Part shown: positions 23,145-28,002 of the stretch, one piece after another
Layout of the letters: each line of letters begins with the position of its first letter
Numbering within the stretch: position 1 is the stretch's first letter
NCBI GenBank assembly: GCA_964534625.1
Contig: CAZHRF010000042.1
Coordinates: forward strand, 1-28,486
Origin: an uncultured archaeon
GTDB lineage: Archaea > Asgardarchaeota > Heimdallarchaeia > Heimdallarchaeales > Heimdallarchaeaceae
Length of the DNA: 28,486 bases
Reading direction: 5' to 3'
Notes under the pieces: model-generated
The model's database searches: none
What the model was told of the DNA's origin: nothing
What the model saw: the letters and a program-made list of their open reading frames with translations, nothing else
Position numbers and translations under genes: made by a program

Positions 23145-24464
23145 TCATAGATTATCTGATACAGATTCTATATTCACTTTTTTCTTCTCAGCAATTTTAT
23201 CTAGATCTTTTTTTTCTTCTATGTCTTTTATTTTGGCAGCTATTGCCTTATCCAAATCCTTTGCATTAGTTCCAATATAAATTAGCCCTGATACAATGAA
23301 TCCTGCTATTGCTGATATGATAAATAATAATTCAATTCCGATAATTCCTCCCAATATTCCCGAAAGTACCATTCCAAGTGGTGACATAACCATAGCAATT
23401 GTCATTATGACAGACATAACCCTACCAATTTTATCTTTAGGAACAATTAATTGCACAACTGTCATTACGCTCACGTTTATTATGGGAGTTCTAAAATACA
23501 TTATGGCTAGAAACAATCCAATAATCAAGAACGCTCCCGTAGGTATAAATGCCAATCCTGCATAAAGTACATAACCTAACATTAACGCAACAATAGTTGC
23601 CAATATTTTTCTTTTGAACCCTTTATAGAGTGACATAAATAATGAACCTAATACCATACCAGTTTGTTGCATGGTCATGATAAGGGCGTAACTTTTTTCT
23701 GTTCCTCCGTGGTTTCTATAAATGAACAAAGGCAATAATGTTCCCAAAGGCATGGAAATAAAATTTACAAAAGCGAAAATTCCTAGTAATGCAACCATAC
23801 CCTTTGTGCTATTTATTGTTTGAAATCCAATTTTCATATCTGAAAAAAATGCAAGTGAAGTAGTTGTTTTTTGTGCAGAAGGGATCCTTGCCATTAATAA
23901 AGGTATAATTGCGATTCCAAAAGTGATTAAATCTACCCACAACACATTTCCTATTGATACAAAGGACAAAAGTAAAGCAGCTACGGCGGGTCCAATTATT
24001 CTTATAACTCCTGATGACAAAAATGTTAGTCCGTTAATTCGAGATAATTTTGTTTCTGGTACCATAGCAGGTATTATAGCTTGCATGGTTGGTGATTGAA
24101 TCGCCTGAAATGCACCCCTAAACCCCAAGATTATGAATATTATTGGTATATTTGCATGTCCAGTAAGAAAAACAAATATTAAAACTGTTGTTACGATGGC
24201 TTGAAAACTATCTGATAATAACAAAATTGCTTTTCGATTGAGTCTATCCGCTAGTACTCCAGCAAAAGGAGTAATAATTAGAGAGGGTCCAAAGCCTACT
24301 AAAGCAGCTAAAGATAACATTAATTCGCTTTCTGTAGTAATGGTTATAAACCAAATAATTACAAATTGGACAACAGAGGAGCCCAATAAGGAAACTTGTT
24401 GCCCACCCCAGAAAAAAAGGTATTGTCTGAACCTTTCTTCCTTGTCAATTTCGGACATACTCAT
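23145..24464 (-). CDS. MFS efflux transporter (DHA3/MefA-like)
   Basis: GQQVSLLGSSVVQFVIIW, PFAGVLADRLNRK, about 12 TM, VPKDKIGRV. Confidence 0.9.
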   Translation of the reverse strand: MSMSEIDKEERFRQYLFFWGGQQVSLLGSSVVQFVIIWFITITTESELMLSLAALVGFGPSLIITPFAGVLADRLNRKAILLLSDSFQAIVTTVLIFVFLTGHANIPIIFIILGFRGAFQAIQSPTMQAIIPAMVPETKLSRINGLTFLSSGVIRIIGPAVAALLLSFVSIGNVLWVDLITFGIAIIPLLMARIPSAQKTTTSLAFFSDMKIGFQTINSTKGMVALLGIFAFVNFISMPLGTLLPLFIYRNHGGTEKSYALIMTMQQTGMVLGSLFMSLYKGFKRKILATIVALMLGYVLYAGLAFIPTGAFLIIGLFLAIMYFRTPIINVSVMTVVQLIVPKDKIGRVMSVIMTIAMVMSPLGMVLSGILGGIIGIELLFIISAIAGFIVSGLIYIGTNAKDLDKAIAAKIKDIEEKKDLDKIAEKKKVNIESVSDNL

Positions 24465-24564: not shown

Positions 24565-25266
24565 ATGAAAAAAATAGGCATAGTGGGAGGGTTAAATGTT
24601 GAAGCCACTATTCAATATTATCAATATTTGACAGAGGAATACCATAAAATAAATAAGCAAAGTACATGTCCTCCGTTAATTATAGACAGTCTTAATTTAC
24701 TAGAAATCAGGCGTTTAATGAAAAATGACCAATGGGCTGAGCTTACTACTATTCTAAGGTCGTCTATTAAAGACCTGGAAAGAGGAGGAGCGGGAGTTAT
24801 TCTCTTAGCAATGAATATTATCCACAAAATTTATGATGAAGTTCAAGCTAAGACAAAGATACCCATAATCAGTTTAATGGATGTAACAGCTAAAGAAATA
24901 AAGAAGAGAGGAGTAGATCGAGTCTTTTTATTAGGAACAAAAAAAACCATGCAATCCAATTATTTTCAGGAAGTTTTCAATGAATATTCAATTAAAACGT
25001 TTACTCCCACTCTGAAAGATCAAGAGCGTATTAACACAATAATATTCGATGAGTTAGATCAAAAAATCATTAATCAGCATTCCCTAAAGATTATTTTGTC
25101 AATTATTGACGAGAGCATCAATAACCATCGAATAGAAGGCGTAATCATTGCTTGTAACAAACTCCCTCTTTTACTTTCCCAAGAAGATTGTAAAGTAATT
25201 TGTTTTAATACAATGGAAATACATTGTAAAGCCACTATACGCTTTTTAATTAAAAAAATGCTCTAA
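24565..25266 (+). CDS. Aspartate/glutamate racemase family protein with a degenerate active site
   Basis: MKKIGIVGGL..EAT..YY, IPIIS, LLGT..TM; catalytic motifs read AMNIIH and ACNKLP. Confidence 0.85.
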   Translation: MKKIGIVGGLNVEATIQYYQYLTEEYHKINKQSTCPPLIIDSLNLLEIRRLMKNDQWAELTTILRSSIKDLERGGAGVILLAMNIIHKIYDEVQAKTKIPIISLMDVTAKEIKKRGVDRVFLLGTKKTMQSNYFQEVFNEYSIKTFTPTLKDQERINTIIFDELDQKIINQHSLKIILSIIDESINNHRIEGVIIACNKLPLLLSQEDCKVICFNTMEIHCKATIRFLIKKML

Positions 25267-25361: not shown

Positions 25362-25399
25362 TCGCGGAATCCTTCCGCGATTCTTCTTTCTTTCTTTTC
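25362..25399 (+). terminator. GC-rich hairpin followed by a pyrimidine tract between convergent genes
   Basis: tcgcggaa-tcc-ttccgcga (perfect 8-bp stem, 25362-25380) followed by ttcttctttctttcttttc. Confidence 0.55.
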
Positions 25400-25425: not shown

Positions 25426-26523
25426 CTATCTCCAATCAAAATAGACTTTTTTTGGGTTTTCAGGTAGTTCGACTCCTTCCAGATTGAACACATCTAATGT
25501 CATCTTTTTTGGAAAGAAAATAAACCTCGCTGATTTGAAACCTTCTGTTTTAAAATATGGGATATATGGCGTTTGTAATCCTTGCCAACCTTTTTTCTTT
25601 GCAATTAAACAAAGTAAATTAGCCAAATCCTTTGTTTCTTGATCATTCAAGTTATATGTGTGTACCATATCTAGCCAACCAAAGGGAATACTATTCCCAA
25701 AACCAGCTAAATTAAACTCCCACGCGATTAAGAAACCATCAACTTTTCCTTGTTTTTCATGAACAACACTTATTACCCCTGGTTGTTTCACCATCCATTT
25801 GAAATCCTCATATTCTTGTACAATTGAAATTTCATTTATTTTTATATGATCTTTTGTTAACGCAAACATTTTTTCGAGATCTTTTTCCTTTGATTCTCTG
25901 ACCTGAACTAATGTTTCTTCTTTAGCTTTTATTTTTTCTTTTAACTGAAAAAACAGTCTTTCATACCATTTGAGCCTTACTACACTAGCCAATTTTTTCG
26001 TATCAAACACTCTGATAACAAATTTATTAATTTCTATCAGCTTGTTTAATTTAATTTCTGCTTCTCTTGCTACTGCTTTAGATGTGTCTATACCATGTTG
26101 AACTGGTTCATGAATGGCAAATCCTCCTTGATATCCTTCTTTCTTTGCGATTTCTAAAACTTTTAAGCCCATCAATTTGGCTATTCCTTTCCGTTGATGT
26201 TTATAGTGAACACAAGCCCAAGCAGGTATTGCAAACTTATGTACTGAGTTTTTGTATTGTAAATGTCGAGGAATCATTCCCATAAATCCTACAGTTTCTT
26301 TAGTCTTTTTTTCTATTGCACGGACAAATAATTGTGGATTAACAGATGGTGCGCCAAAAACGATATTAAATGTTTGTCTTGTAAAAAGAAGACTCGCACC
26401 ATTTTTTCTTGCATCTTCATCATGTAAGAATGAAATGGAAATTAATTTTGAAAGCTCATCATAATGCCCCTCTTCTAATATGAATTGCTCAATCCGATAA
26501 AATTCATTTTCAAAATTTTTCAT
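25426..26523 (-). CDS. Tandem-GNAT acyltransferase resembling eukaryotic glycylpeptide N-myristoyltransferase (NMT)
   Basis: GNAT CoA motif CVHYKHQRKGIA; colinear by-eye similarity to NMT over both domains (see findings). The GNAT call is secure; the NMT relationship is inference. Confidence 0.7.
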   Translation of the reverse strand: MKNFENEFYRIEQFILEEGHYDELSKLISISFLHDEDARKNGASLLFTRQTFNIVFGAPSVNPQLFVRAIEKKTKETVGFMGMIPRHLQYKNSVHKFAIPAWACVHYKHQRKGIAKLMGLKVLEIAKKEGYQGGFAIHEPVQHGIDTSKAVAREAEIKLNKLIEINKFVIRVFDTKKLASVVRLKWYERLFFQLKEKIKAKEETLVQVRESKEKDLEKMFALTKDHIKINEISIVQEYEDFKWMVKQPGVISVVHEKQGKVDGFLIAWEFNLAGFGNSIPFGWLDMVHTYNLNDQETKDLANLLCLIAKKKGWQGLQTPYIPYFKTEGFKSARFIFFPKKMTLDVFNLEGVELPENPKKVYFDWR

Positions 26524-26682
26524 ATTAGTTATGAGTAAACTTATCTATTTTTTAATTTAGTTGTCCAATTATGGTTATATTTCGTGATTATGGCAAAAAA
26601 GAGTATTCTTCTTAATATTTAATTTAAGCTTTGAATTGCAATGCTTAAAGGAGGGATTGTTTTACCAAATAAAAAAAAGAGG

Positions 26683-27165: not shown

Positions 27166-28002
27166 ATGAATACTGAAAAATCTCCTTCGCATCAATCTGA
27201 GAAAATCATCACTGACTCTCAATATGCTGTTCTAAATTATCTTCAAGAATTAATTAATGAAAAACTAACTGAACTTCAAATCATTTCTGCTGCAAAGACT
27301 GATAAAGCTGACATTCTAACTACTAACATAGAAACAAAGAATAGTTTAGAAGACATTGCAAGTCATTTAGAAGAAATAAATCAAGAGATTGCTGAGTTGA
27401 CTATTTTCCAAACAAAGGTTTTAGATATTCTCAGTTTTATTGATCTCGTATCCATAAACCAAATCAACCCAAACAAACGTCACCTGAAACGTTTTCAAAA
27501 TGAGTGCACATCACTTTATGATCTGTTCAAGCAATTTTCAGATACGCTTAAAATACACGATAAAAAAATTAAAGATAATAAAGAATCAATTGCCAATCTC
27601 ACTCCTAAAGCACAAGACTTCAAATCTTTAGCCATTAAATTTGTCAAGATTGATAATGAGAATAAAGCAAAACTTGCTTTAAAAAAGAAAAAAGAAGTAG
27701 AAGAAAAGATTCAAGAGCTTGAAATGAAAAATGATGAACACCAGCTTATATTGAAAGAAAAACGTTTTGATTTCTTAAAAACAACAAGATCACAAATTGA
27801 AAAAATTATTAAGAAAGCAAAGGTTGATGATTATATATCGGTGAAAGATGATACTTTTGAACAAAAGGAGGATATGGTTTTAGATAGTGATAGAGAAGAT
27901 TTCATGCAACTTGAACAGTTAACAATTGAAGAAGTAGAAAACTATGAATTTGACGAAGATATTCTTGCTGAATTGGAACAAATAGAAAATGAACTAGAGT
28001 AG
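27166..28002 (+). CDS. Helical coiled-coil protein with ESCRT-III (Snf7/Vps20)/PspA-like C-terminal half
   Basis: All-helical charged sequence; AKLALKKKK..EEKI..LE, TIEEVE and acidic tail FDEDILAELEQIENE. Confidence 0.55.
   Translation: MNTEKSPSHQSEKIITDSQYAVLNYLQELINEKLTELQIISAAKTDKADILTTNIETKNSLEDIASHLEEINQEIAELTIFQTKVLDILSFIDLVSINQINPNKRHLKRFQNECTSLYDLFKQFSDTLKIHDKKIKDNKESIANLTPKAQDFKSLAIKFVKIDNENKAKLALKKKKEVEEKIQELEMKNDEHQLILKEKRFDFLKTTRSQIEKIIKKAKVDDYISVKDDTFEQKEDMVLDSDREDFMQLEQLTIEEVENYEFDEDILAELEQIENELE

Follow-up and report, generated by a model that had tools for sequence, protein, structure and literature searches.

A distant homologue of N-myristoyltransferase in a Heimdallarchaeial genome, probably an N-acyltransferase built of two GNAT lobes

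N-myristoyltransferase (NMT; EC 2.3.1.97, Pfam PF01233 plus PF02799, represented by human NMT1 and yeast Nmt1p) is a textbook-eukaryotic and essential enzyme tied to the membrane targeting of Arf GTPases and to other eukaryotic hallmarks. According to Meinnel et al. (2020, as cited in PMC12219266), it is limited to eukaryotes. The 2025 paper on HisAT/NAT16 reported that predicted structures of an "NMT-type" double GNAT occur in archaea and bacteria, cautioning that activity is unproven; a second Thorarchaeota protein is among the structures compared in its table, where NMT-type rows are not marked (PMC12219266). Here we describe a gene carried by a stretch of 28,486 nucleotides from an uncultured archaeon of the Heimdallarchaeaceae (contig CAZHRF010000042.1, hereafter the window), which an initial annotation made from the sequence had taken for an archaeal NMT-like protein and a candidate eukaryotic signature protein. 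The gene is a single open reading frame (ORF) on the minus strand (positions 25426-26523), that runs from ATG through 365 codons to a TAG stop, as given by the ORF list and its translation. In our literature search, no paper was found that describes the Asgard family to which its product belongs, the invariant tail of this family or its distribution. The analysis presented below suggests that the product would be best regarded as a predicted N-acyltransferase of the NMT superfamily, rather than as a demonstrated archaeal myristoyltransferase or an established eukaryotic signature protein.

The 365-residue protein is a genuine but distant homologue of NMT, with pairwise identities of just 13-17%. 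Judged by profile comparison, the similarity is far beyond chance, because 44 distinct NMT sequences (E values from 1.7e-12 to 0.04) precede the first other GNAT (E 0.047) when a family profile of 28 sequences is searched against the PDB, and because comparison by hhalign with 17 genuine NMTs, which we recovered from metagenomes and giant viruses and combined into a profile, gives a probability of 98.8 and an E value of 4e-16. Furthermore, the matches obtained with phmmer in the PDB, 20 in number and all weak, are exclusively NMT1 or NMT2 chains. A colinear match with human NMT had been proposed by eye, and all of its blocks are reproduced by program-made alignments: VGFMGMIP/VGFISAIP, ACVHYKHQRKGIA/LCVHKKLRSKRVA, VRESKEKDL, EKQGKVDGFL and LIAKKKGW are found in the phmmer alignment to human NMT2, and ISFLHDED/NYVEDDD and IRVFDTKKL/HRSLNPKKL in the profile alignments. 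The Pfam comparison suggested by the initial annotation gave a split answer. The NMT N-domain PF01233 passes marginally, over residues 15-118, with 26.9 bits for a cut-off of 25 (E 5.1e-6), whereas NMT_C PF02799 finds no match in the protein even at E up to 10; genuine NMTs score 194-243 bits on the former and 204-242 bits on the latter. The N-lobe is also matched by Acetyltransf_9 (E 1.2e-6).

Examination of the predicted structure leads to the same family. The AlphaFold2 model, for which the family alignment served as input, has a predicted local distance difference test score (pLDDT) of 93.1 and a predicted template modelling score of 0.90, and consists of two GNAT lobes and a linker, which is the single-chain, two-lobe arrangement of NMT. 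NMT occupies all top 50 positions of a Foldseek search against the PDB (E about 1e-20). The VIA comparison, exhaustive over 48,161 representative chains, gave in its first pass Z scores of 31.5 for yeast NMT and 30.0 for Cryptosporidium NMT; the superposition on NMTs is summed up by Z 31-33, with a root mean square deviation of 2.6-2.8 Å and 333-340 of 365 residues superposed. The other tandem GNATs are likewise made of two fused GNAT domains with an interface active site, and several of them act on small amines (PMC12219266), but they remain at Z 14-23 and none is reached by sequence profiles ahead of NMT. These are MAB_4324 (7q3a, Z 22.6), the Pyrococcus PH0736-like protein (3ddd, 20.3), Eis (3sxn, 19.6), the clavulanate-pathway GNAT (2wpw, 18.1), HisAT/NAT16 (9emd, 14.7) and MshD (1ozp, 14.4), and the glucosamine N-acetyltransferase 5kf1 is also among them. 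A best match to Eis, FemX or generic GNATs, the outcome that would have spoken against the initial annotation, was not what we found: the preference for NMT (Z 31-33 against at most 22.6) amounts to about nine Z units over the next tandem GNAT.

The model places the end of the chain where the catalytic carboxylate of NMT lies. Residue 365 is the last aligned one and stands opposite position 496 in human, 455 in yeast, 492 in A. fumigatus, 421 in L. major, 410 in P. vivax and 451 in C. albicans NMT, which is in each numbering the final residue, and the aligned range of the model shortens to 364 and 362 against the human deltaC2 and deltaC3 truncated enzymes, respectively. In human NMT1, the carboxylate of Gln496 is the catalytic base, and the loss of two or three residues costs 98-99.6% of the efficiency (PMC7048800). 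The in-register C-terminus claimed earlier is thus borne out in the predicted model, where it would reach the active site rather than lie away from it. By comparison, the HisAT chain stops right after its last strand and does not return to the active site. The tail residues W364 and R365 are invariant in 28 of the 28 family sequences, and almost all relatives share this end register. From these observations we infer that the C-terminus may take part in catalysis. A forced global hhalign alignment of the C-terminal region, which laid YFDWR onto the YLYNWK strand of NMT at the cost of a 30-residue gap, was dropped in favour of the structural alignment.

Besides the modelled position of its chain end, the archaeal protein has in common with NMT the CoA loop, the position of the beta-bulge and an equivalent of the Ab-loop (Table 1). 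Motif A (Q/R-x-x-G-x-G/A) is the CoA pyrophosphate-binding loop of GNATs. In NMT, the backbone amides of the beta-bulge form the oxyanion hole, with a role for Phe247/Leu248 (PMC7048800). The surrounding signature E-I-N-F-L-C-x-H-K reads I-P-A-W-A-C-V-H-Y in the archaeal protein, which keeps only C-V-H, plus the aromatic residue as Trp; the earlier reading of EINFL as IPAWA is found again in both the phmmer and the column alignments. Alignment columns show further positions that are kept or compatible with NMT, namely V105/H106, P59, F80, R209, D215 and F334. NMT Asp183 is kept as D35, and Asp185 corresponds to D37, which varies across the family. For Thr282, phmmer, hhalign and MAFFT disagree, and no placement of its equivalent was adopted.

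The residues by which NMT recognises Gly and the substrate peptide appear, from these alignments, largely replaced. In pocket 1, the Gly-holding positions Tyr180, Tyr192 and Asn246 of the human enzyme become Phe32, Phe47 and Ala101 (Ser, Ala or Gly in the family). Since the human Tyr180Phe/Asn246Ala double mutant retains 89% activity (PMC7048800), the changes to Phe32 and Ala101 would be compatible with NMT-type chemistry. Pro338-Lys339, with Lys339 invariant, stand in place of Asp471-Gly472, by which NMT holds substrate residue 7, and the Phe188 lid is replaced by Gly or Ala. Unlike NMT, whose tail is hydrophobic (Val-Leu-Leu/Gln), the archaeal protein ends in F-D-W-R with an invariant polar Trp-Arg, and it is devoid of the N-terminal segment that precedes human residue 148. 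Residues invariant in the Asgard clade are P100, H109, E139, H143-G144, G282-W-L-D285, Q317, P319, Y323, K339, W364 and R365.

The protein database search returned 120 homologues of about 364 residues with 40-86% identity, whose names point to Heimdall-, Loki-, Thor-, Gerd- and Sigynarchaeota and include the cultured Lokiarchaeum ossiferum (P0089); the nearest ones bear Heimdallarchaeota or Asgard names. Queries with broader alignments, aimed at eukaryotic NMTs or named bacterial relatives, brought no further sequences from this database. Some members, 48-54% identical, come from bins named Smithella, Zixibacteria and Bathyarchaeia (P0064, P0033, P0020) and might stem from mis-binned Asgard contigs or from recent transfer. 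In its host genome (3.37 Mb, about 90% complete), the gene, located on contig C42, is the only match and thus single-copy. Its distribution across Asgard archaea is patchy, with a match in 62 of 400 genomes. It is found in 26 of 30 genomes of the window's own taxonomic family, in all 12 of a second one, in 10 of 14 of the family that contains closed genomes of 4.4 and 6.0 Mb, and in 2 of 4 of another; it is absent from the 12 and 22 genomes of two families of the same order and from the 19 of another family, and the largest Asgard family gives just 3 weak matches in 135 genomes. Furthermore, the gene is decayed in two closed genomes of a sister genus within the window's own family: one copy (G014:C1:1011617-1012702) contains two TAG and one TAA internal stops, and the other (G015:C1:1138304-1141232) is split into two separated fragments. 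Because of this decay, the gene is dispensable in these two genomes; being dispensable and patchy, it differs from NMT, which is universal in eukaryotes. When the 400 Asgard genomes were scanned with the Pfam NMT N-domain, only the Trp-Arg-tailed family was found (38 matches above the cut-off, the best at 41 bits), and no match was obtained in 14 control genomes.

The protein is part of a broader "NMT-type" family, archaeal as well as bacterial, with members of about 350-365 residues. Indeed, an exhaustive phmmer search through 1.8 billion representatives added proteins of 330-410 residues at 20-27% identity, among which several distant relatives score 40-47 bits on Pfam NMT, above the Asgard family, and one passes the cut-offs of both NMT and NMT_C. 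A second, distant Asgard paralogue family (Sigynarchaeota-type, about 340-390 residues, ending in Tyr-x-Asp/Glu-Ile/Val-Arg) occurs in other Asgard genomes and is absent from that of the window. Other distant relatives look bacterial, their nearest ESM-Atlas clusters being Myxococcota, Aminicenantota, Acidobacteriota, Pseudomonadota, Chloroflexota and others. Among predicted structures, those of these bacterial clusters come nearest to the model, with template modelling (TM) scores of 0.81-0.87, on a par with or higher than eukaryotic NMT (0.80-0.81) and giant-virus NMT (0.74). The bacterial double GNATs of about 350 residues resemble the archaeal protein in length, fold and end register, as well as in Y361, F334, a basic residue at position 339 and the KWYE linker, and many of them end in acid-x-Arg; they differ by an identity of only 18-27% and by the separate position of the Asgard clade (support 100), in which P100, H109, H143-G144, G282-W-L-D285, Q317 and W364 are invariant residues of its own. 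Small profiles built from two bacterial-looking groups match the NMTs of the PDB at 7.6e-18 and 1.3e-16, compared with 1.7e-12 for the Asgard profile of 28 sequences, and some of these groups end in hydrophobic residues as NMT does.

A scan with the back-translated EINFLCVHK signature returned 4 giant-virus and 116 metagenome loci, from which 35 full-length ORFs were extracted; both NMT Pfam domains match three of the viral ORFs with 194-243 bits. The compact giant-virus NMTs of 348-391 residues (L024:4789-5835, L025:11924-13000, L022:1615-2790), with full-strength NMT and NMT_C matches, show that a protein about as large as the archaeal one suffices for a working NMT core; those of 348-358 residues come close to it in length.

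A tree was computed from 17 NMTs, 22 Asgard-clade members and 15 distant relatives (365 columns, LG+C20 with posterior mean site frequencies, quick search, unrooted), after two NMT rows whose ends are atypical (L032, L114) had been set aside. Support is 100% for the NMT clade as well as for the Asgard clade. The sister group of the latter is formed by the Sigyn-type paralogues (93), followed by a group of 404-411 residues (80), and the very long branch of NMT emerges from an unresolved node among the bacterial groups. As forcing a joint clade of Asgard proteins and NMT costs only 1.8 log-likelihood units, with a p-value of 0.458 in the approximately unbiased (AU) test, a special relationship between the two is neither supported nor rejected by the data.

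To look for clues to the substrate, we turned to the proteome of the host genome, taken as a crude set of 2564 ORFs with uncurated start codons. The initial annotation had proposed to look there for MGxxxS N-termini, and no excess of them was found. Gly occupies position 2 in 78 of these ORFs (3.0%, against 5.6% Gly overall) and is thus depleted, Met-Gly starts are not enriched, and the myristoylation-like motif Met-Gly-x-x-x-Ser/Thr follows in 19% of Met-Gly N-termini as compared with 22% of internal Met-Gly. Two Met-Gly candidates proved to be false starts inside longer genes. The commonest second residue is Ser (15.1%). Only one of the 27 small GTPases, a Ras-family protein (MGQQFNFK..., C28:17430-18164), starts with Met-Gly. 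The Arf-like proteins have amphipathic N-termini (MSVFTGFSQWLK, MFGNFSKWLKG, MSFLLKLF and MSWLGRLFGRKK), none with Gly2; three of the four start with Met-Ser and the remaining one with Met-Phe. This agrees with published reports, two papers describing Asgard Arfs devoid of Gly2 and membrane binding without lipidation; the binding of Asgard Arf to membranes was found to be independent of lipidation (PMC11914678).

The genomic neighbourhoods yielded no conserved operon across the nine loci examined, and neighbours are shared only among close Heimdall relatives. In these, the gene is flanked by a DinB_2 gene and by a divergent Peptidase_M28 gene, with a GH20 hexosaminidase nearby (L002:3748-8908, L005:3602-8247, L008:3742-10741, L004:77-6095). 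GH20 and DinB are also close to the gene at one Gerdarchaeota locus, and neither the window nor the Loki loci have such an arrangement. At the Loki loci, the gene is accompanied by an MFS transporter and an ATP-grasp ligase, or by a Ras-like GTPase and a CDP-alcohol phosphatidyltransferase. The small GTPase directly upstream in L. ossiferum was considered as a substrate; starting with MTASK, it has no Gly2 and lends no support to this idea. In the window, the gene has a racemase and an MFS transporter for neighbours, and at one Loki locus (L003) an MFS transporter and a D-Ala-D-Ala-ligase-like gene accompany its orthologue; this may be due to chance or to a weak, recurrent connection with amino-acid or peptide metabolism.

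Altogether, these results led us to abandon the description of the protein as a eukaryotic signature protein. Its gene is patchy in Asgard archaea, bacterial look-alikes with better NMT profile matches are widespread, and the best tree does not put the Asgard clade beside NMT. Moreover, NMT_C is not matched, most residues conferring Gly and peptide specificity are replaced, and Gly at position 2 is depleted.

We consider it probable that the protein, a single chain made of two GNAT lobes and a member of a prokaryotic NMT-type family, is active as an N-acyltransferase of the NMT superfamily and depends on acyl-CoA. In such an enzyme, the N-lobe would bind acyl-CoA by means of its Q110-x-x-G113-x-A115 loop and of the P100-A103 beta-bulge, the latter serving as the oxyanion hole. 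The acceptor would sit between both lobes, and the protein's own C-terminus, Y361-F-D-W-R365, would fold back into the active site, where, as in NMT, the terminal carboxylate would deprotonate the acceptor amine. As to the acceptor, the chances of a small carboxylate-bearing amine (a free amino acid, a short peptide or an amino sugar) seem about even, and a protein N-terminus appears the less probable choice. We lean toward a small molecule because the peptide-reading residues of NMT are replaced, because the invariant basic residues K339 and R365 line the predicted acceptor site, because the gene is dispensable and patchy, and because peptidases, a racemase, transporters and a hexosaminidase are occasionally found next to it; this preference is itself weakly founded.

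Several points weigh against this proposal. The small-molecule view leans on weak and non-conserved gene neighbourhoods, and the near-complete NMT core (333-340 of 365 residues), the Ab-loop equivalent and the absence of an operon would suit a protein-modifying enzyme equally well. The residue-level clues to the acceptor are alignment columns at about 15% identity. The placement of the C-terminus comes from a predicted model whose last five residues have a pLDDT of 77, the training of AlphaFold having included NMT structures, and a sequence-only MAFFT alignment of the tail leaves three extra residues (DWR), that is, an ambiguity of about three residues. Finally, the joint clade of Asgard proteins and NMT is not rejected by the AU test, which leaves room for a possible special relationship between them.

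A protein N-terminal acyltransferase with a specificity other than that of NMT, which might use NMT-type chemistry to acylate or acetylate, for instance, Ser or Ala N-termini bared by Met removal, possibly those of the Arf-like GTPases, is a tentative alternative that we judge rather unlikely. It would account for the nearly complete NMT core with the conserved aromatics of the Ab-loop equivalent, and for a gene that stands alone without a conserved operon, as is often the case for protein-modifying enzymes. Moreover, the hydroxyl of NMT Tyr180 helps to exclude residues larger than Gly (PMC7048800), and F32 could here admit a small side chain. The prevalence of Ser at position 2 and the Met-Ser starts of the Arf-like proteins fit such a specificity, but Ser is simply the most frequent residue at this position, and the lipidation-independent membrane binding of Asgard Arf (PMC11914678) speaks against these proteins as targets. 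Besides, residues with which NMT reads the peptide (Asp471, Phe188 and part of the acidic Ab-loop) are replaced, many Asgard families with small GTPases do not have the gene, which is broken in the two closed genomes, and the bacterial relatives occur in lineages without such GTPase expansions. A bolder version, in which some Asgard archaea including Lokiarchaeum would possess an NMT-type enzyme that acylates, and perhaps lipidates, protein N-termini, with a relaxed Gly gate (Tyr180 to Phe) accepting Ser or Ala as in their Arf-like GTPases, and in which eukaryotic NMT would descend from this lineage, strikes us as improbable; if true, co-translational protein lipidation would predate eukaryotes.

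More doubtful still is that the gene encodes a bona fide NMT, the direct Asgard forerunner of the eukaryotic enzyme attaching fatty acids to N-terminal Gly, which we regard as very improbable. In its favour, no characterised family comes closer than NMT by any measure, the modelled C-terminus is in register, an Asgard-NMT clade is not rejected by the AU test and one Ras-family GTPase of the genome starts with MGQQFN. Against this stand the depletion of Gly at position 2, the frequency of the motif, no higher at N-termini than internally, the Met-Gly start of a single small GTPase out of 27 and the missing Gly2 of published Asgard Arfs. Neither an NMT_C match nor the EINFLCxHK signature is present, the bacterial relatives match NMT better, the nodes with supports of 93 and 80 part the Asgard clade from NMT in the best tree, and the distribution in Asgard archaea is patchy. 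At the other extreme, the protein could be a generic tandem GNAT sharing with NMT only the fold, or converging on it, or an inactive pseudo-enzyme. The low identity to NMT and a Pfam score barely above the cut-off would be in line with this idea, to which we give next to no credit: on sequence profiles alone, NMT outranks all other GNATs by many orders of magnitude, the structural Z score is about 9 units above that of other tandem GNATs, and the CoA loop, the bulge and the C-terminal tail are strongly conserved over the 120 homologues, which argues for a working enzyme.

With an NMT-type protein present in the cultured L. ossiferum, bench experiments could directly address how the NMT fold and its unusual catalysis by a C-terminal carboxylate arose. 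The most probable outcome, under the N-acyltransferase proposal that we favour, would be a new prokaryotic activity showing what NMT evolved from, rather than archaeal myristoylation. That the Asgard family lost, or never had, the residues by which NMT reads Gly and peptide tempers the claim.

Table 1. Coordinates of the NMT-like gene, of the elements of its product and of other features mentioned in the text (positions in the window, or contig and positions in the host genome for the Arf-like GTPases)
Feature	Position	Strand	Basis
Complete gene, 365-residue NMT-type double-GNAT protein	25426..26523	-	Stop TAG at 25426-25428; ORF list, translation
N-terminal GNAT lobe, residues 1-172, predicted acyl-CoA-binding lobe	26008..26523	-	Pfam, model secondary structure, NMT N-lobe alignment
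NMT Ab-loop equivalent, F32 to F47, invariant G42	26383..26430	-	Column mapping against genuine NMTs, family conservation
P100-A101-W102-A103, opposite NMT I-N-F-L beta-bulge	26215..26226	-	HMMER alignments to yeast and human NMT, column counts
Q110-R-K-G113-I-A115, predicted GNAT motif-A pyrophosphate (CoA) loop	26179..26196	-	Aligned with NMT R-S-K-R-V-A, family-conserved
Inter-lobe linker, residues 173-207, with conserved KWYE motif	25903..26007	-	Model secondary structure, alignments
C-terminal GNAT lobe, residues 208-365, predicted acceptor side	25429..25902	-	Model; weak NMT C-lobe alignment; no NMT_C match
C-terminal tail Y361-F-D-W-R365, modelled at NMT carboxylate position	25429..25443	-	Family alignment, VIA ranges, pLDDT 77
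AT-rich TATA-like stretch, about 20-35 nucleotides upstream of ATG	26541..26559	-	Read from sequence
GC-rich hairpin, 7-bp stem, then T-rich run	25362..25380		Read from sequence
Asp/Glu racemase, downstream of the NMT-like gene and convergent with it	24565-25266	+	
MFS transporter, beyond the racemase on the downstream side	23145-24464	-	
Arf-like GTPases of the host genome	C6:49554-50120; C38:13184-13747; C15:31683-32210; C95:3570-4157		ORF scan

The window is AT-rich (31-38% G+C), and the neighbours of the NMT-like gene have no obvious functional relation among them. Upstream, on the same strand, lies an ORF of 112 residues without a Pfam match, and further upstream an ESCRT-III-like ORF and a dodecin gene. 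A coiled ORF of 278 residues with an acidic tail (27166-28002) has no Pfam match and had been read separately as ESCRT-III-like in the initial annotation. The TATA-like stretch in front of the NMT-like gene is a possible archaeal promoter, and the hairpin located between this gene and the convergent racemase gene a possible terminator, maybe shared by both.

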